The notes beneath the pieces are model-generated. The model was not told where the DNA came from and ran no database searches. It saw only the letters and a program-made list of their open reading frames with translations. From assembly GCA_023264445.1 (NCBI GenBank), contig JAHFMN010000002.1, forward strand, positions 2,365-66,364: 64,000 bases of DNA, given 5' to 3'. This stretch comes from Candidatus Kaiserbacteria bacterium (GTDB lineage Bacteria; Patescibacteriota; Minisyncoccia; Phycocordibacterales; Phycocordibacteraceae). The translations under genes were made by a program, and so were the position numbers. Positions 2,066-46,651 of this stretch are shown here, in pieces (within the stretch, counting starts at the first letter, position 1; each line of letters starts with the position of its first letter).

Positions 2066-4321
2066 TTATTTTTTTGATTGTGCATAGGTAGTGATGGCGG
2101 CAAGAAAGTTCTGGTCGGTCGCAAGCATCGTAGGATCTTCAGTCCGCAGTTTCTCGACAATCCGCAATGCGGCGGCTGGATCGCCAGCAAGATACGTTAC
2201 CTTTGCGAGATCATAGAGTGCATCGTAGTCGGAAGGATTCTCCGCAACCAGATCCGCAAGAAAAGGAACGGCATGTTTCCAATCCCCTATCGCAATATAA
2301 TACTTCACTGCTGGGCCGGCCGCCGCCGGATCCGAATTTTTGTATAGAGGGAAGGCACTATCGGCCCATTCTTTCGCAGCGACTCTGTCGCCGAGCTTGA
2401 AATACAGTGTCGCAAGAACGTACCTCGGCACAGGGAGCATGGGTTCTTTCTGCACGTATGTCTTGAGTACGGCTATTGCTTCTTCAAAATACGTTCCCTG
2501 CAGCGCACTGCCGAGTGGAAGACGATCAGCTTGCCGCAGATAAATATTCGCCGTCATGTACCATGCCTGGGCTCGTAGTGGCGACAATTCTAGGGCCCGC
2601 GTCAATACCTTCCTATCGAAGGTGTCATCCACGACGACTTCCGGCGGCGCCGTATCGATAACGTGTCCGAGATAGGTCGCGGTTCGTGCATCATACGGAT
2701 ATCGTTCGAAATTCGTCGTCAGCGTAGAAAGCGCGAAGTCATAAGCGGCCACGCGGTTCGCTCCCGTAAGCTGTACCACTTGATGGGCCGTAAACATATC
2801 ATACGCCTGATAGCCGTATTCCAGATTGGCATACGTATGGAGCGCAAGTCCTTTCGTAAAGAGTGTGTTCGCTCCATTCACATCAATGAGGTGCAGACGA
2901 TACCCCTTCGTCAGCAGGATATTCGCGTACAGCGGCATCAGAACGGCCGGCACGATAAGAAATGCAATAAGTAAGGAGACAATTCCTGCCGTTATAGGCG
3001 GTGCACGCTTCTGCGAAAGCGGAACGGGAGAATCATCGGAGAGGAGGACGACGAGAAGTGCGAAGAGTGCATACAAGAGCCATAGTGATGACGGTGTATC
3101 GAAAACGAAGAAGTTCTGAATTGCGTACGTAAGAATGAGCAGGGAGAAGAGGAGACCGACGTTCATGAGACCGCGTTCCTCGCGCCGATATAATCTCAAA
3201 GCGAAGGCACCAAATGCGCCGATAAGTGCCATATAGAGTGCCAAGCCGAACACGCCATATTGCACGAAATAGTCGAGGAAGGCGTTGTGCGAACGATCAA
3301 ACCATTGCTCAACGATTTTACCCGGGTCATAGACCTTGTCGAAGAGTCGTGCAATATGTTCCGCTCCATAGCCAGAAAGAGGATGCTGCAATGCTTCTTG
3401 CGTCAGGTGCGACCAGACGAACAGACGGCTACTGACGGTTCCGTCGGAGAGCGAAATGGAGGCGATGCGTTTTACAGGCTCAAAGGAGCTCTGCGCAAGT
3501 TCGCTGCGGAAGACGAAAAAAAGACCACCAAGAATGGCCAGGATAAGGAGTCCATACCGTGCGATACGCTGTATCTTCTCCTCCCCTTTCCATGCAGCAA
3601 AAACGAGAGCAACGACTCCCGCACCAAGGAGGGCGAGTATCGTACCGCGCGTTGCAGCAAGGACGATTGCGAGTACCGAGAGAACGGCCGCCGTCGCATA
3701 GAGACGACGCCACAGACCCTGCGAATCCCGTAGCACAATCAAAATGATGAAGAAAGACATGCCGAGATACCCTGCAAGAAACGCCGCATTCCCAAACGTA
3801 CTGCCGATACGGCCGGTAACCGGCGGTAAGAACCATGCCCTTCCACCAACGGCCGCTGTTATCCACTGAAGAACGGCTATGGCCGCGACGAGACCCGCGA
3901 CGACAGCGACCGTCTTTGCGAATCGCTCCAGAAAAGCACGGTCGGCAGAAAGCACGATGAGATAGAAGAAAATGGTGACGACCGTGGAGGTCAAGAGCCC
4001 ATCGCCGCGTTCAAAAATACCCCAGAAACTATGATAGAAATCGAAACCGAAGAACGAAGTGACATACGCGACGAGGAGCAAAAGCGCAGGAATCCACGTT
4101 GCGGGGGTTTTCAAACGCCCATAGAAGAAAGGCTCCCCAATAAGCTTCAGATAGGTGAAAATCGCGAGTGCCAGGATCCCAAAGCCCTGAAGCAGGAACG
4201 TTTTCGGCGCGACATACGGGTAAAGTATCCCTCCGATATAGACGAGCGGCAAAACGGCGGGTGCAAGGAGCACATACGGGAATAAGTGTTTCAAGCGGTA
4301 TCTCATGACTGCTGTTCCCAA
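2066..4321 (-). CDS. O-antigen ligase (Wzy_C/RfaL-like) family polytopic membrane protein with a C-terminal TPR-repeat domain, 751 aa
   Basis: About 12 TM segments in the N-terminal 430 aa, then TPR-like repeats (LGDRVAAKEWADSAF, YDALYDLAKVTYLAGD). Confidence 0.7.
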   Translation of the reverse strand: MGTAVMRYRLKHLFPYVLLAPAVLPLVYIGGILYPYVAPKTFLLQGFGILALAIFTYLKLIGEPFFYGRLKTPATWIPALLLLVAYVTSFFGFDFYHSFWGIFERGDGLLTSTVVTIFFYLIVLSADRAFLERFAKTVAVVAGLVAAIAVLQWITAAVGGRAWFLPPVTGRIGSTFGNAAFLAGYLGMSFFIILIVLRDSQGLWRRLYATAAVLSVLAIVLAATRGTILALLGAGVVALVFAAWKGEEKIQRIARYGLLILAILGGLFFVFRSELAQSSFEPVKRIASISLSDGTVSSRLFVWSHLTQEALQHPLSGYGAEHIARLFDKVYDPGKIVEQWFDRSHNAFLDYFVQYGVFGLALYMALIGAFGAFALRLYRREERGLMNVGLLFSLLILTYAIQNFFVFDTPSSLWLLYALFALLVVLLSDDSPVPLSQKRAPPITAGIVSLLIAFLIVPAVLMPLYANILLTKGYRLHLIDVNGANTLFTKGLALHTYANLEYGYQAYDMFTAHQVVQLTGANRVAAYDFALSTLTTNFERYPYDARTATYLGHVIDTAPPEVVVDDTFDRKVLTRALELSPLRAQAWYMTANIYLRQADRLPLGSALQGTYFEEAIAVLKTYVQKEPMLPVPRYVLATLYFKLGDRVAAKEWADSAFPLYKNSDPAAAGPAVKYYIAIGDWKHAVPFLADLVAENPSDYDALYDLAKVTYLAGDPAAALRIVEKLRTEDPTMLATDQNFLAAITTYAQSKK

Positions 4322-21610: not shown

Positions 21611-22270
21611 CTAGTTGCGAGGGAACACCCGATAACCGGCGCTCCAGTAGTAGTCGTCGCGCCCCCCCGCGTTCACGAACCAGTAGCCACTGTCGGCAAG
21701 CCAGAACACGTACACGACGAAGCCGGGCACGTAGAAGAGGTTGGCGTATCCGTTGTTCAGGAGTTCGCCATCCCTCCCTCCCCACTGCTTCTCGATCATC
21801 TGCGCGATGCGCGCACAGAGTTCGGACGGGTCCCACTCATACCCTTCGGGAAGTTCCGCCGTGATTTGGCTGTCCTTTGCGTTTTTGCGAAGGTCATAGG
21901 ACTTGCCGGTGCAGGCGTCGAGCTTCTCGACCGACTTCACGTTCGCAAGAATGCGTTCGTTGAATTCGCCCCAGATGTAGAGGCCGTCACGCGTCTGATA
22001 GAACGCGTGCGGGTCGTGAGGTTTGTCGAGCGCCGGATACTCCACCTGTCCATTCGCGAGAGCAAGTAAGGCGGGTTTCGGAACCATGGGAACATCGCCC
22101 AGTTTCGGGCAACCGGCTTTGAGGTAGGCCGCGAGATTGCGGCGCGCTTCGCGGTTATCCGTCACCGCCAAGAGTTCGGTGGTGACACCCTCCTTCGCCA
22201 TGACCCGTACAAATTTCGCGGTCGTGTCGAGGACGTTACTGATGGTTTCGAGGTGAGCGATGTTCGACAT
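21611..22270 (-). CDS. Hypothetical protein of 219 aa (start MSNIAHLETISNV). It is monocistronic with its own strong promoter, leader hairpin and terminator
   Basis: AGGAGG sits 7 nt upstream of the ATG; there is no recognisable family motif. Confidence 0.6.
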   Translation of the reverse strand: MSNIAHLETISNVLDTTAKFVRVMAKEGVTTELLAVTDNREARRNLAAYLKAGCPKLGDVPMVPKPALLALANGQVEYPALDKPHDPHAFYQTRDGLYIWGEFNERILANVKSVEKLDACTGKSYDLRKNAKDSQITAELPEGYEWDPSELCARIAQMIEKQWGGRDGELLNNGYANLFYVPGFVVYVFWLADSGYWFVNAGGRDDYYWSAGYRVFPRN

Positions 22271-22300
22271 CGTGTGCCTCCTAAGTAAAGAGCAACCCAT

Positions 22301-22368
22301 CCTGAATACGGGAATCCCGCACTCATTAGGTTGTTTATATTATATACTCAAATGACCTATCCTGTCAA
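22301..22368 (-). promoter_or_regulatory. Promoter plus conserved 5' leader module, copy A: -35 TTGACA (22363-22368), 18 nt spacer, -10 TATAAT (22339-22344). A leader hairpin UGAGUGCGGG-AUU-CCCGUAUUCA lies at 22303-22326
   Basis: Consensus hexamers; the 23-nt palindrome/hairpin starts about 10 nt after the predicted TSS; a near-identical module sits at 39501-39570. Confidence 0.55.
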
Positions 22369-23792: not shown

Positions 23793-23885
23793 AGAGCGAT
23801 ATTACTGCCAAGCGAGCCGAGTGGCAAAGCATGTCCCCATGATTTGTCCGAGGCAAGCGCAGGAAGAAAGCTCGGTCATACGAGC

Positions 23886-25772
23886 TTATTGAACAGTAGC
23901 GTTAGTCGGGACATATCCTGGATCTCCCTTCGTTTCGGTCGTCACTGGATCGGCCGTCTCTGCTATCTGCACGCCAGCGAAGCGATCGTATCCTGAAAAA
24001 GTGACCGCACCGGTAAGTGGCGGCGCAGAACCTTTCTGCGAGGTGGACGGAGTGAATGAGACCTGGAAAAGCCCTTGTGTGCTCCCCGCTTGTGCGAGGT
24101 CGCCGATATCCCATGAGACAGAACGAGAGGTTCCATCATACGAGAAAGAGCCGCTACCGCCTGTGAGACCGGTATAGGAAACGTAGCCGGGCAATACCGT
24201 CGAGACCCTTCCCCCGGCCACCGCGCTTCCTTTGTTTTGAGCAGTCAGGACAATACTATATGTCGTCGCTTGATTGGCTTTAGGAGGAATAGGGCCGCTG
24301 TTTCCTATAGCTCCCGAACTATGCAGCGCTGCTGCTGAAAGCATGACTGAGGTCGCGACCTTCACGGTCTTGGCTGCAGAAGCATTCACCAATTCCGGCA
24401 CATTACTCTGGCCCACGCGAGTACCAGAGACAGAGATAGTGAAGGTGATTGATGGTGTGGTGGGAAGCATACTCGCTGGAAGGGTTGCGAAAGAAAACGA
24501 ACCGAAACCAGAAGCACCAGGCGCAAGCGAGGCAAGAGAGGAATCGGTGTCCCTGCTGAACACGACGGTATGATCGGAGGAGCGGTAGAAACCATTTGTC
24601 GTCTGTATGCTGTCATAATCAACCGCCGAACCAGAGAGTGCGATAGAGATTGTCGCATTTGTCACACTCGTTGAGAGCGTATTCGTATAGGAAAGGCTGA
24701 CGTTCTGAGGGCTCCCAGCAGTGACGACGGTGTTCGTGCCTGTATCCCCGTTAAGGGCAAGCGTCGTATTAATAAAAGGCGCTCTGATGGTAACCGTCGC
24801 ATCTTGTGTCATATAGGAGACGACGGGCGTCTGGTTCGTCGGCGTATCCGCGGTCCCGACTGTAAAGTGGAAAACGCGCTGCTCTTTATCTTGTCCCAAG
24901 AGCGTTCCAACAAGCGTCACTTCCTTGCTCGCACCGGGCGCGATAGTGCCGAGCAGAAAACTGGAATTATTCAGCGGGCGTGACGACGAGGTGACCGAAA
25001 AGCCAAATGGGAGCGTGCTTGCGAGAACGACGTTCTCGAGCGGTACTGTTGCATTAGAACGGACGGTGAGTGTAAAAGCGAGCGGTTTGCCGGAAATCGT
25101 TTCAGAGAGCGTCTCGACCGAAAGCGAAAGCGGCGTAGAAGAGATCGTCAGTGGATAGGAAGTTTTCTTTACAAAACCCGCATTGGAGCCGGTCGTACCG
25201 TAGGAAAATGTGACTGGCAGAGTGAGCGTTTGTCCGGCTCCGCCGAATATGATTGCCTTCAACGAACGAGTTATCGTCGCACCGCTTGCGAGCATGCCAA
25301 GATTCTCGGTGTAGCGCGGGTAGGTCTGCGAGATATCATCTGCACTGCGCGTGCCGCTTGGGAATTCAATCCCAATCGTCGCATTTTCAAGAGCAACCGG
25401 ATTCTTATTCGTTATGGTGAGTGATAGGGGGACGGTATCTCCTCCTGCGATTGTCGTCGGGCCTTGTATATCGATGGTGATCTTGTCTACCGAGACGGTG
25501 TTGCCGCCGGCAAAGAAGAAATAGCCGGCGGCAACAAGTGAAACGAGAAAGAACAGGAATGCAATGGTGAAAAATATACCGGCGAAATGAACGTGTCGCT
25601 CCCCATTTCGCGAGAATTGCTGAAATGATTCTCGCCACGTATGAGGTAGAAGGCGTGGGCCAGACTGTGCAAGTGGAGGATTTCCTCCCGATGAGGGGGC
25701 AACGGGCTCGTAGAGACGCTTTCGCGCCCGTTCAAGCGAGCCAGTATCATCTTCAGGAAGCGGCGGCATCAC
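23886..25772 (-). CDS. Large membrane-anchored surface protein of 628 aa with repeated beta-sandwich (CARDB/Ig-like) domains
   Basis: Single TM helix IFFTIAFLFFLVSLVAAGYFFF followed by a 550-aa Thr/Ser-rich ectodomain. Confidence 0.7.
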   Translation of the reverse strand: MMPPLPEDDTGSLERARKRLYEPVAPSSGGNPPLAQSGPRLLPHTWRESFQQFSRNGERHVHFAGIFFTIAFLFFLVSLVAAGYFFFAGGNTVSVDKITIDIQGPTTIAGGDTVPLSLTITNKNPVALENATIGIEFPSGTRSADDISQTYPRYTENLGMLASGATITRSLKAIIFGGAGQTLTLPVTFSYGTTGSNAGFVKKTSYPLTISSTPLSLSVETLSETISGKPLAFTLTVRSNATVPLENVVLASTLPFGFSVTSSSRPLNNSSFLLGTIAPGASKEVTLVGTLLGQDKEQRVFHFTVGTADTPTNQTPVVSYMTQDATVTIRAPFINTTLALNGDTGTNTVVTAGSPQNVSLSYTNTLSTSVTNATISIALSGSAVDYDSIQTTNGFYRSSDHTVVFSRDTDSSLASLAPGASGFGSFSFATLPASMLPTTPSITFTISVSGTRVGQSNVPELVNASAAKTVKVATSVMLSAAALHSSGAIGNSGPIPPKANQATTYSIVLTAQNKGSAVAGGRVSTVLPGYVSYTGLTGGSGSFSYDGTSRSVSWDIGDLAQAGSTQGLFQVSFTPSTSQKGSAPPLTGAVTFSGYDRFAGVQIAETADPVTTETKGDPGYVPTNATVQ

Positions 25773-30163: not shown

Positions 30164-30327
30164 TACTCCTCCATAGCAGTCGCGACCGACGACATGTACG
30201 GTCTGCGAAAGAATCTAGCGCACTCTCAGCTTACCCGCAACCTACTGCCAAGCGAGCCGAGCGACAAATGAAGTCCCTACTTTATTTGTCCGAGGCAAGT
30301 ACAGAGAGAAAGCTTTGTCTTCAAAGC

Positions 30328-31974
30328 TTACATCCTTTCAGGCGTGGGGACACCGAGAAGCGTGAGACCGTTCGTCATGGTCTGCACGAACGCGCGGGCG
30401 ACAATCAGTTTATGCGCCTCGTGATCGCCGCCGATGATGCGTTCCTTCGCATAAAAAGAATTCCACTGTCCTGCAAGCTCGGTCAGATAGGTCACGAGGA
30501 GATTCGGGGTAAGCTCCCGTGCGGCGCGTGCGGCTACTTCAGGGAAATGCAACATGACTCGTTCTATATCGTACGGTTCGGCAGGTATATCACCCTTTCC
30601 CTTTTCTCCTGCTTGAGCGAGCACAGAGGCCGCCCGCACAAGCGCGTACTGGAGGTACGGTCCAGAATCACCCTCAAGCGAAAGTGACTTCTCTTCGTCA
30701 AAGACGATATCCGATCCCGGGGCCTGGCGCAGAATCATGTACTTGATCGCACCGATTGCCACCTGCTCGGCGATAAGCGGATCTGGATTCTTCTCACTGG
30801 CCCTTGTGATGATGTCTCGGATAAATTCGGCGGCGGCAATGACATTCCCTTCGCGCGAAGACATCTTCCCCGAGGCAAGCTTTAGAAAACCGGTAGAGAC
30901 ATGAACCGTTTTCTCGGCAAGAACTGGCGCGATGTCGGAAAGCGCTGCGAGTACGGTCCTGAAACGTCCTGTCTGTTCATTCCCAGTAATAACGACTGCC
31001 TGGTCTGACGGCCATCGCTCCTCCTTCAGGAATGCAAGTCCTATATCTTTTGCTTCATACGTCGGCGTATCATGCGAGGTGATGAATACCATCGTATGCA
31101 CGCCTTTCTTCTCTCCGTTGTAGATGATGGCACCATCGCTTTTTTCAAATATCCCTTTTTGCAACCCATCCATCACGATGCGCACGCCGGCTTCAGTCGT
31201 ATCGCTGTCAAAGAATTCAAAATCGAAATGCGTCCCGAGCAATTTCCAGATGCGGCGGAACTCTTCCATAGAAACGTCTCGTCCTTTCCGCCACAATTCC
31301 ATGAGTGCGTGGTCAGTACCCGCATACATCGCCTGATTGAGCGCGTCTATCTCTTCCTTCGCGTTCGGATCAGTCTCATAGGCGCGCGAACCTTCGGTAT
31401 ATGCCGCACCGATTTCTTGAGCGGTCGTCGGATCATCAATGCCGTTTTTTCGCAGTCCCCAGAGCGCCTTCGCGACGTTCGGACCGATATCTCCGCCGAA
31501 GGTATCGCGCGCCACCGTTGCACCGGAATTCTGTATGAGACGTGAGAGTGCCTCGCCTACGACCGTACCGACAAGATGACCGATATGCATCTCCTTGAAT
31601 GCATTCGGATTTGAATATTCGACGAGGATGCGTTTCGCGGTATTCCCGCCACCTTTCCCCCAGTCCGGTCCCTTCGCATCGGCCTCGGCAACCATAAAAT
31701 TGACCGCATCGCGCGCAAGCAGAATATTTATGAAGCCCGGTCCGGCGACTTCTATTCTTGAAACATGATCGCGAAGAGATTCTCGGAGTGCGTGCGCAAG
31801 CTCGTCAGCGAGCTCACGCGGATTCTTACCAAGTGATTTTGCTGCTGCAAGCGCGGCATTCGTCGCATAATCTCCATGTGCTATATCCCCGGGCCGTTCA
31901 ACGACGAACGCGACGGTATCGGCACCCATACGCACCAAAATATCCTTGATGGACTGCCGGATTTGCTCCTCCAT
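30328..31974 (-). CDS. argS: Arginyl-tRNA synthetase
   Basis: HIGH-like PNAFKEMHIGH and KMSS motifs; start taken at MEEQIRQSIKD. Confidence 0.93.
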   Translation of the reverse strand: MEEQIRQSIKDILVRMGADTVAFVVERPGDIAHGDYATNAALAAAKSLGKNPRELADELAHALRESLRDHVSRIEVAGPGFINILLARDAVNFMVAEADAKGPDWGKGGGNTAKRILVEYSNPNAFKEMHIGHLVGTVVGEALSRLIQNSGATVARDTFGGDIGPNVAKALWGLRKNGIDDPTTAQEIGAAYTEGSRAYETDPNAKEEIDALNQAMYAGTDHALMELWRKGRDVSMEEFRRIWKLLGTHFDFEFFDSDTTEAGVRIVMDGLQKGIFEKSDGAIIYNGEKKGVHTMVFITSHDTPTYEAKDIGLAFLKEERWPSDQAVVITGNEQTGRFRTVLAALSDIAPVLAEKTVHVSTGFLKLASGKMSSREGNVIAAAEFIRDIITRASEKNPDPLIAEQVAIGAIKYMILRQAPGSDIVFDEEKSLSLEGDSGPYLQYALVRAASVLAQAGEKGKGDIPAEPYDIERVMLHFPEVAARAARELTPNLLVTYLTELAGQWNSFYAKERIIGGDHEAHKLIVARAFVQTMTNGLTLLGVPTPERM

Positions 31975-32135
31975 ACGCGCGAGTATACCAATAAAATGAG
32001 GCCTGCCGGAGAGCGGTGGCAGGCCTCGGGAGCCAAGAAGGAGAAAGAAAAGACCCGGTACTTCAGGCATTGGGATTGGAATTCCTGGCCGGTTTCGGGT
32101 TTTTGGTTCCCTCTCCTTCGCGACTATGCCGAATG

Positions 32136-37325: not shown

Positions 37326-37428
37326 CATTTGTTCAAAAACCTACTTCACGTCGACCCACGCATACTTTTCTGCTGAAAAGTTGTGCGGGCCCGCCTCGGC
37401 TCGTCAGCCTCCGGCCGGTCGACGTTTC

Positions 37429-38832: not shown

Positions 38833-38883
38833 AGGCCGGGAGAGCCAAAGTTCCCAAGGGCCAAAGTGCAAAAATCCGAAGAC

Positions 38884-39480
38884 CTAAGCCCCAGAGACCT
38901 TGCGAACGGCGAGGAAGCGACAACCCACACTCCAGCCGCTGCCGAACCATAGGAGGTCGAGGTCACACTCGGAATCGCTCCGAGGGAGGTACGGCACGCT
39001 GCGATTGCCACGGACCTCCGCGACCGAGCCTAGGCCGATGATTGGGAACTTGCGCTGTTCGTCGGGGTATTTCTCCCCGAAGCAGAGCAGGTGCTCGATT
39101 CTTGCCGGTTCCCAGCCCGCTTTCTTCATCGCTTCAATCGCTTTCTCCGAGGAGATGTTGTGGTTGAAGTGGAAGTAGCGGCTCTCGAACTCCACCATGT
39201 CCTCCCCTTCGAGCGGGAAGCGCTTCGCTGTGATGTCGCTGTTCTTCCAGTCGTAGCGACCGGCGGCGATCATCTCTTCGAGGGAACGGTCGTAGTCGAT
39301 GGTGAGGGGGATGGTGAGGGGGAAGGTGTTGGGGGTGGGCGTGACGTGCTCAAATGGATTCTTCCGCTGATTGAATAGTGCGAGTTCGTCGAGAGTGATA
39401 CCTCCCTTGCGGATTTTGCATGCAAGGTCTTCCCACAATCCAGCCAAGCGTTCGCCCGGCAAAGTCACGGCGTTAGCCAT
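38884..39480 (-). CDS. Hypothetical protein of 198 aa, monocistronic, carrying the same promoter-leader module as gene 21611..22270
   Basis: Full-length ORF; CAGGAG Shine-Dalgarno sequence; own terminator. Confidence 0.6.
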   Translation of the reverse strand: MANAVTLPGERLAGLWEDLACKIRKGGITLDELALFNQRKNPFEHVTPTPNTFPLTIPLTIDYDRSLEEMIAAGRYDWKNSDITAKRFPLEGEDMVEFESRYFHFNHNISSEKAIEAMKKAGWEPARIEHLLCFGEKYPDEQRKFPIIGLGSVAEVRGNRSVPYLPRSDSECDLDLLWFGSGWSVGCRFLAVRKVSGA

Positions 39481-39500
39481 GTGTTTCTCCTGTAATGAGC

Positions 39501-39570
39501 TATCCTGAATGCGGGGAATCCCGCACTCATTAGCTTTTTCAATAATACACCTAATAACCTATATTGTCAA
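39501..39570 (-). promoter_or_regulatory. Promoter plus conserved 5' leader module, copy B: -35 TTGACA (39565-39570), 17 nt spacer, -10 TATTAT (39542-39547). Leader hairpin UGAGUGCGGG-AUU-CCCCGCAUUCA at 39505-39528. An extra partial half-site CCCGTGAATACGGG lies at 39583-39596
   Basis: About 34 nt of the leader are near-identical to copy A, with a compensatory-like U to C change in the stem. Confidence 0.55.
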
Positions 39571-39624
39571 TGGATAGAAAAGCCCGTGAATACGGGATTT
39601 TCTGACATTATTTCAAGACTCTCG

Positions 39625-45136: not shown

Positions 45137-45310
45137 AGTGCACCGTATCGAGGCACATCTCGAACTTTTCCTAAGAGAGCCAAGAGGTGCGTCCATAAAC
45201 AAGTGGGGAGAGCTTGCTCTGAGTGCATGAGCTATCGCGGCCTGGCGAAGAAGATCATGCGTGGTCTGGATGAGAACCATGATGAAAATACCCAGCTTGA
45301 CTGAATAATT
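45137..45310. repeat. Repeat R1 copy a, about 150-170 bp. The first 75 nt are about 96% identical to copy b at 45836-45990, and the 5' edge resembles the tRNA-Arg 3' end (tGGTGCaCCG)
   Basis: Pairwise alignment by eye. Confidence 0.7.
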
Positions 45311-45689: not shown

Positions 45690-45835
45690 AAGAGTTCGAT
45701 TCCTGTGCGGGTTGAGCTCATCCGTGTCTCGTCTGGCAGGATGTCACGTCATTTGGAGAAAAGGAAAACGGCTCGTAGGTAAGCCGTTTTCCTTTGGATG
45801 TGGGGGAAATGTGCCTGTGTGGCACGTTTCCACTC
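45690..45835. repeat. Repeat R3 copy a, about 150 bp. It is homologous to 46425-46576 and contains an 11-bp inverted repeat GGAAAACGGCT/AGCCGTTTTCC and a GTGCC...GGCAC hairpin
   Basis: Alignment by eye; a 1-nt indel argues for a noncoding function. Confidence 0.7.
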
Positions 45836-45990
45836 CTGGTGCACCGTATCGAGGCACAACTCGAACTTTTCCTAAGAGAGCTAAGAGGTGCGTCCATAAA
45901 CAAGTGAGGAGAGCGTGCCCTCGTTGCGCGAATTACCGCGGCTTGGCGAAAGAGATCATACATGGCCTCGGCGACTTGACTGAAGAGGCA
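45836..45990. repeat. Repeat R1 copy b; begins cctGGTGCACCG
   Basis: See R1a. Confidence 0.7.
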
Positions 45991-46424: not shown

Positions 46425-46576
46425 TTCAAAAAGTTCGATTCCTGTGTGGGTTGAGCTCATCCATGTCTCGCCTGGCACGATTTCGTACCACTGGAGAAAG
46501 GAAAAGTGGCTTACAGGTAAGGCGCTTTTCCTCTTGATGACGTGAGAATGTGCCTACCTGGCACATTCTCTAATCC
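46425..46576. repeat. Repeat R3 copy b, directly abutting the 3' end of tRNA-Arg(TCT)
   Basis: See R3a; stems preserved with U-G / C-G substitutions. Confidence 0.7.
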
Positions 46577-46651
46577 TGGTGCCCCGAGCTGGAATCGAAC
46601 CAACATCAACGGCTTAGAAGTCCGCTGCACTATCCATTGTGCTATCGGGGC
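46577..46651 (-). tRNA. tRNA-Arg (anticodon UCU) with an encoded CCA
   Basis: Manual cloverleaf, 75 nt; anticodon loop CUUCUAA; A31-G39 mismatch. Confidence 0.8.

Follow-up and report, generated by a model that had tools for sequence, protein, structure and literature searches.

Stem-loops at the 5′-end of the transcript that stabilise mRNA are known from the 5′ UTR of E. coli ompA and from the aprE and ermC leaders of B. subtilis. DGRs are most abundant in uncultured ultra-small bacteria, and to our knowledge almost nothing is known about the expression of DGR variable proteins, least of all in these organisms. Among cis elements of DGRs, the IMH and a hairpin/cruciform located 3′ of the VR have been described (PMC3240598), as has an RT-10/spacer RNA that lies between TR and RT (PMC5737381). 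In the literature searched, no leader RNA for DGR target genes was described, only the RT-10 motif between TR and RT.

Here, two minus-strand genes of the window (the whole stretch of DNA that was analysed, 64 kb in length) were compared with these systems: gene A (21611..22270, 219 aa) and gene B (38884..39480, 198 aa), each preceded by a copy of the same promoter-leader module, copy A and copy B, respectively. By analogy, the two leaders would resemble those of ompA, aprE and ermC in having a stable hairpin within 1-2 nt of the predicted start, a strong promoter and an accessible Shine-Dalgarno sequence (SD), the position of the window hairpin being given relative to an inferred transcription start site (TSS). 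They differ in that the window hairpin is common to two genes only, contains an internal loop and an outer helix, and belongs to an uncultured Patescibacterium. With the IMH/cruciform and the RT-10 RNA they have in common that nucleic-acid structures occur at DGR loci; however, those elements lie 3′ of the target or near the RT and serve retrohoming, whereas the window element lies 5′ of the target and is found without TR or RT.

In copy B the −35 element TTGACA (39570-39565) and the −10 element TATTAT (39547-39542) are separated by a 17-nt spacer and match the consensus at 11 of 12 positions. After a further 6 nt the hairpin follows, and then GGAUAGCUCAUUAC, the SD AGGAG (39491-39487), which is preceded by GCUCAUUAC (39500-39492), and the ATG at 39480. 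The inner stem is formed by UGAGUGCGGG (39529-39520) and CCCGCAUUCA (39515-39506) around the loop AUUC (39519-39516), and the outer helix by AGCUA (39535-39531) and UAGCU (39502-39498), the extended hairpin thus covering 39498..39535 on the minus strand. Copy A, likewise on the minus strand, consists of TTGACA (22368-22363), an 18-nt spacer and TATAAT (22344-22339), i.e. 12 of 12 consensus positions, followed by an inner stem (22325-22316 and 22312-22303) with the loop AUU and an outer helix AACCUA/UGGGUU, which together make up an extended leader hairpin at 22294..22332. The SD AGGAGG and the ATG at 22270 are located downstream of it. An in-frame ATG at 22300 was considered as the start of gene A and was ruled out, as homologues and the SD support 22270. 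The loop of copy B contains one additional C relative to copy A.

The initial annotation had assigned the same arrangement to both copies. The duplicated promoter-leader module with its stable hairpin was confirmed, but the details given for copy A had to be corrected, its spacer being 18 nt instead of 17 nt and its −10 element TATAAT instead of TATTAT. The 20-mer CTAATGAGTGCGGGATTCCC (22329-22310 in copy A) occurs exactly twice in the 64-kb window, compared to 0 occurrences expected from shuffles. Over about 40 nt the copies are ~95% identical; by region, identity amounts to ~95% in the hairpin core, 80% in the extended hairpin and 77% in the promoter, and drops to background or random levels in the flank upstream, near the SD and in the coding sequence. 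Both modules have the spacer sequence ATAGGTYATT in common, which is missing from the promoters of relatives; the GGTG in front of the −10 element of copy B resembles the promoters of relatives. When sigma-70-type promoters with a spacing of 16-18 nt were searched, copies A and B were the two best matches within the window. Judged by these comparisons, the two are paralogous promoter plus hairpin modules at two unlinked genes, with predicted near-consensus sigma-70-type promoters.

The TSS was predicted in both copies from the distance to the −10 element. At 7 nt after this element, it would be located at ~39535 in copy B and at 22332 in copy A, which in each case is the first nucleotide of the outer helix. 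Folded from this predicted +1, the extended hairpins of copies B and A reach −22.3 and −23.4 kcal/mol with z-scores of −3.8 and −2.6. For the core hairpins z-scores of −6.4 and −5.5 were obtained, and none of 200 shuffles was as good. Among the leaders behind the 10 best promoters of the window these two are the most structured (−22 versus −13 or weaker). Both leaders display the same architecture, namely a 10-bp stem, an internal loop with A opposite GGA, and an outer helix of 5-6 bp.

All 30 pair cells in the two copies are standard pairs, and each of the four helix substitutions keeps the pairing. The pair changes consist of one two-sided swap (G-C to C-G in the outer helix) and two one-sided changes, one of which, a U-A to U.G change, also lies in the outer helix. 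The only insertion or deletion, of 1 nt, is located in the loop, and one G.U position is kept in both hairpins. Since only two sequences can be compared, and 241 of 500 shuffles do as well, these pair-preserving differences carry no statistical weight. The U-to-C change reported earlier is real, with G.U in copy A and G-C in copy B, but it is one-sided only. The outer helix with its two-sided swap is absent from the earlier description.

The window is part of a metagenomic contig of Patescibacteria origin (Kaiserbacteria/Paceibacteria-like). No Pfam domain was found in the products of genes A and B, and no similarity was found between the two proteins. Homologues were obtained for both (253 for gene B and 45 for gene A), and those of gene B that carry a source name are all labelled as Patescibacteria lineages. 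In two relatives, L085 and L087, the 3′-end of the gene B homologue recurs downstream of the gene as a 129-nt repeat, behind which Avd and RT genes are located, and the VR/TR mismatches fall on adenines of the TR, i.e. the downstream copy, in 21 of 21 and 16 of 16 cases, respectively. For gene A, the homologue in L091 is accompanied by Avd and RT; its VR and TR extend over 118 nt and differ at 23 positions, 22 of which are TR adenines. Because the mismatches of relatives lie at TR adenines and Avd and RT genes adjoin, the sequence comparison identifies genes A and B as homologues of two unrelated DGR variable-protein families, with the VR-equivalent of gene B at 38902-39030. The DGR-bearing relatives are 52-66% identical to the window proteins, and in 41 of the 91 fetched loci an RT is located 0.9-1.3 kb downstream. 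The structural model of gene B (pLDDT 65.9) gave top PDB matches that are all C-type lectin domains, these matches being weak (E 0.02-0.2, TM 0.3-0.45); by sequence, gene B matched no solved structure.

Within the 64-kb window no repeat of either 3′-end that could represent a TR, no DGR RT (tblastn with two DGR RTs) and no further paralogue of genes A or B were found; therefore, both genes are orphan targets, at least locally. Gene A is flanked by glyS and a gene for an AI-2E transporter, and gene B by SIMPL, secE and nusG. The syntenic ortholog in L086 (SIMPL, gene, secE, nusG) likewise has no RT nearby. On the minus strand a terminator-like hairpin (38875..38895) overlaps the gene B stop codon; another such hairpin (38823-38807) and then the secE promoter (38780-38753) follow. 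In L092, a 63-aa fragment resembling a DGR reverse transcriptase (3078-3266) was observed downstream of a gene A homologue, which suggests that orphan targets may arise through decay of the RT. Two genes annotated as 'hypothetical' can be re-annotated as homologues of DGR targets of the orphan type.

Other repeats of the window were inspected as well. Two tandem units of ~720 nt share a 130-nt repeat (45138-45267 and 45839-45968, 85%) and a 56-nt repeat (45690-45745 and 46429-46484, 89%), the latter resembling the T-arm and 3′-end of a tRNA (TTCGATTCC). These units adjoin tRNA-Arg (46577-46651), contain small ORFs without Pfam domains and may be what is left of elements that had inserted at this tRNA. 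As no RT is present, a DGR was ruled out for the 130-nt repeat (45138/45839). Furthermore, ~85 nt at 23803-23888 and 30243-30330 are paralogous (79-86%), include a terminator-like hairpin and are placed immediately downstream of two large genes of the minus strand (23886-25772 and 30328-32070).

The relatives of both families carry a different leader. A promoter of the form TTGACA...GTGTAtAaT is directly followed by the motif AGYTCWTTGA and then by a long hairpin, the ancestral form of which is UCGCCAUAGC-nGAAAG-nGGCU...GGCC-UUUCU-GCUAUGGCGA, also denoted CGCCAUAGC...GCUAUGGCG; small hairpins and the SD come after it. In an alignment of 37 such ancestral leaders, compensatory double changes were seen in 13 of the 20 consensus pairs. 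R1, a covariance model derived from this alignment, matches 46 loci (e.g. L086:2390-2471, L008:2672-2761, L091:1860-1947 and L092:2364-2453, among L005-L095), all of them directly upstream of the target gene and on the coding strand, with no match elsewhere in the flanks. True members score between 29 and 87 bits. The 5′ motif AGYTCWTTGA is likewise specific to leaders of DGR targets. Conservation in relatives, the lack of which would refute the initial annotation, is strongly evident when any structured leader ahead of these genes is counted. The leaders of relatives matched no family in Rfam at the gathering or E-value thresholds. In viral contigs R1 gave 0 matches, and 12 exact-arm matches were all due to chance.

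A further observation concerns the 5′ motif of the ancestral leaders. In the MFE folds of 8 of ~30 leaders (L014, L018, L046, L059, L086, L089 and L091 being among those with this pairing), the purine-rich SD region is the pairing partner of this motif (UUCUUU or CUCUUU), so that the whole leader is closed by it, and these predicted folds suggest that the 5′ motif may have an anti-SD role.

When R1 was run on the window with filters off, the best match (E 0.3) was located away from the locus, and near copy B the E-value was 7.8. With Rfam only tRNAs were found in the window at the gathering threshold, the best matches at the locus having E ~6. In L094 and L095, where the proteins closest to those of the window are encoded (68% and 66% identity), direct reading shows the ancestral leader and not the module. 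The syntenic ortholog L086 matches R1. Because the closest relatives of both proteins keep the ancestral leader and the window is without an R1 match, both leaders have changed, and by this comparison both window genes appear to have exchanged the ancestral leader for the short hairpin. The window hairpin is like the R1 leader in being placed between promoter and SD of the same two gene families; it is unlike it in that it starts at +1 versus ~+25 and in that the long CGCCAUAGC...GCUAUGGCG hairpin is missing. Some fragments of the window resemble parts of the ancestral leader, namely GCUCAUUAC/GCUCUUUAC beside the SD, which is similar to AGCUCAUU/AGUUCUUUGA, CGGGAUUCCCGU, similar to CGGAUUCCCGU of L087, and UUCAGGAU, similar to UUCAGCAU. 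It may be speculated that the short leader arose via an internal deletion of the big hairpin.

Further copies of the module were searched at several levels. The window contains no third copy beyond A and B. A search of 80 loci from the genomes of relatives, tolerating as many as 4-5 mismatches, gave no copy outside the same strain. A metagenome collection yielded 0 matches to a strict degenerate pattern and 45 matches to a looser pattern, all of the latter being unrelated high-GC coding sequence. Another run provided contigs of this strain, but these are 100% identical and hence offer no population variation that could be used. Compared with ENA contig k141_7718876, the window shows a single G/A difference at position 37359 over 6.6 kb and reaches ~8.1 kb past the start of this contig; by sequence, the window is evidently a different assembly of the same strain.

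With moderate confidence we propose that the hairpin acts in the mRNA, as a 5′ stem-loop which would either set stability or be read by a common factor and by which genes A and B would be co-regulated. One of the two module loci would have been copied to, or converted by, the other within the genome, the module thereby taking the place of the ancestral leader with its AGYTCWTTGA motif and long covarying hairpin. The stem-loop is predicted to begin at or beside the first transcribed nucleotide, and the SD of gene B would stay free of it. The gene B unit would be self-contained, being composed of an upstream terminator, a near-consensus promoter, the 5′-terminal hairpin, SD, ORF and a terminator. 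For the shared post-transcriptional setting of both genes, protection of the 5′-end from decay or a common RNA-binding factor appears most plausible.

A function of the same sequence as DNA would be the most serious alternative, albeit one we consider unlikely. According to this explanation, the imperfect palindrome TGAGTGCGGGA / TGAATRCGGGR at ~+7 to +30 would bind a dimeric repressor co-regulating both genes, and a third TGAATACGGGA at ~−52 to −62 of copy B would be an auxiliary site. As in repressor operators, an imperfect dyad is located just past the −10 element, a placement suited to a roadblock, and the 5 exact matches to TGARTRCGGG in the window are all found in the hairpin arms and the third element. 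However, the spacing of the half-sites is 3 nt in copy A versus 4 nt in copy B, which a dimeric DNA-binding protein would be expected to tolerate poorly, and the half-sites differ at the position that is the conserved G.U in the RNA. Moreover, the two-sided swap in the outer helix is located outside the dyad and matters for pairing only, and no regulator gene adjoining locus A or locus B was found. The choice between RNA structure and a palindromic DNA half-site, which had been left open in the initial annotation, thus leans towards RNA: all helix changes keep the pairing, the indel is confined to the loop, the G.U is kept, and a covarying hairpin occupies the same place in the relatives.

For the third site itself, in front of copy B, the preferred interpretation is an intrinsic terminator belonging to the SIMPL gene upstream. 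The partial element CCCGTGAATACGGG noted previously is present at 39583-39596, but its anatomy is that of a terminator instead of a half-site. On the minus strand a hairpin with the core CCCGUAUUCACGGG (39596-39583) and A-run and U-run flanks spans 39577..39603. Of the 5 bp in its stem 4 are G-C, the loop measures 4 nt, the tail reads CUUUUCU, and the SIMPL stop codon lies 22 nt upstream; with pairing of the A-run and U-run the hairpin reaches −12.2 kcal/mol (z −4.6) and is terminator-like on both strands. Since this hairpin with its A/U runs follows a stop codon, a terminator explains the third site. In favour of the auxiliary site, the third element is located close to copy B, and the element (39584-39594) and the right arm of copy A (22303-22313) share the 11-mer TCCCGTATTCA on the minus strand (shuffle p ~0.001); yet an identity of 11 nt exceeds the need of a half-site, and copy A has no significant upstream counterpart of the element. 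The shared 11-mer, which neither the terminator nor the RNA hairpin explains, might have been left behind by a tandem copy or by the copying event. The leader hairpin was also considered as a plus-strand terminator, which was ruled out because there is no plus-strand gene to terminate.

It is rather improbable, in our view, that the hairpin has no function of its own and that only the promoter was recently copied (through duplication, through gene conversion or within a small mobile or REP-like element), the palindrome being a by-product, e.g. of a deletion that removed the ancestral big hairpin. The absence of copies outside the strain and the 11-nt repeat upstream are compatible with this explanation, as is the high identity of the two copies, which a simple recent copying event could produce; two sequences cannot demonstrate selection. 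In addition, the window leader is similar in its 5′ part to the 5′ leader of L085 and in its 3′ part to the small hairpin of L087 (CGGATTCCCGT), and these resemblances fit a deletion between GGTTCGCC and GGATTCCC. On the other hand, the hairpin core is ~95% identical versus 50-77% in the rest of the module, which argues for purifying selection on the hairpin rather than for a uniformly recent copy. Every change keeps the pairing, and the ancestral leader that was replaced is clearly constrained. Were the hairpin a mere by-product of promoter copying, the finding would be an ordinary one.

Returning to the hairpin as an element of the mRNA, its 5′ nucleotides had been suggested to permit translational control through pairing with the SD or its immediate surroundings. 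Such pairings can be drawn: in copy B CUAAUGAG at the 5′-end can pair with GCUCAUUA, 1 nt upstream of the SD, and copy A offers CCUAA and, overlapping the SD, its complement UUAGG. Taken further, the leader would be a translational switch in which CUAAUGAG alternates between the hairpin and the pyrimidine-rich neighbour of the SD (GCUCAUUAC or GCUCUUUAC), gating ribosome access, this pyrimidine-rich segment being an anti-SD-like relic of the ancestral 5′ motif. The pairing of UAAUGAGU with GCUCAUUA over 8 bp in copy B, a CUCUU segment that is paired to the SD AGGAG when copy A adopts its MFE fold, and the contacts of UUCUUU with the SD region in relatives would fit such a switch. We nevertheless judge it very improbable. 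In both copies the pairings compete with the far more stable hairpin; for the same 76-nt leader of copy B the alternative pairing reaches −15.5 kcal/mol versus −30.2 kcal/mol for the MFE fold, and it leaves the SD uncovered. The SD of copy B is predicted to be 84-98% unpaired, and the pairings are unlike between copies A and B. Translational control by the 5′ leader nucleotides, as originally suggested, was hence not upheld, and the pairing of the 5′ motif with the SD region in relatives is a lead for the ancestral leader and not for the window leader.

Least probable, with only a slight chance of being correct, is a leader RNA bound by a factor dedicated to DGR biology (RNA polymerase as an antiterminator, or an Avd-like protein), by which the variable protein would be regulated in its expression, or transcription would be allowed to continue into the TR-avd-RT genes. 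In its favour, only DGR targets, of two unrelated families, carry the ancestral leader, an operon-like order of target, TR and RT lies behind the leader in 41 loci, and both targets here changed their leader together; against it, L086 and L089 keep the ancestral leader with no RT nearby, and in the window read-through would reach no RT.

A broader proposal can be made only tentatively, namely that in Patescibacteria the DGR-target genes and target-TR-avd-RT operons possess a dedicated class of leader RNA with a shared trans factor, and that in this genome the leaders were swapped in concert. The covarying leader of DGR targets, without a match in Rfam, is a more interesting by-product of this analysis than the module itself. 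One leader design spans two unrelated DGR-target families in many Patescibacteria, and one genome appears to have switched both. If the broader proposal is true, DGR targets would form a co-regulated set, the expression and perhaps the diversification of which would be under control at the RNA level. For the regulation of DGR targets the analysis provides a handle, consisting of a defined RNA element, a covariance model and a natural swap for comparison.
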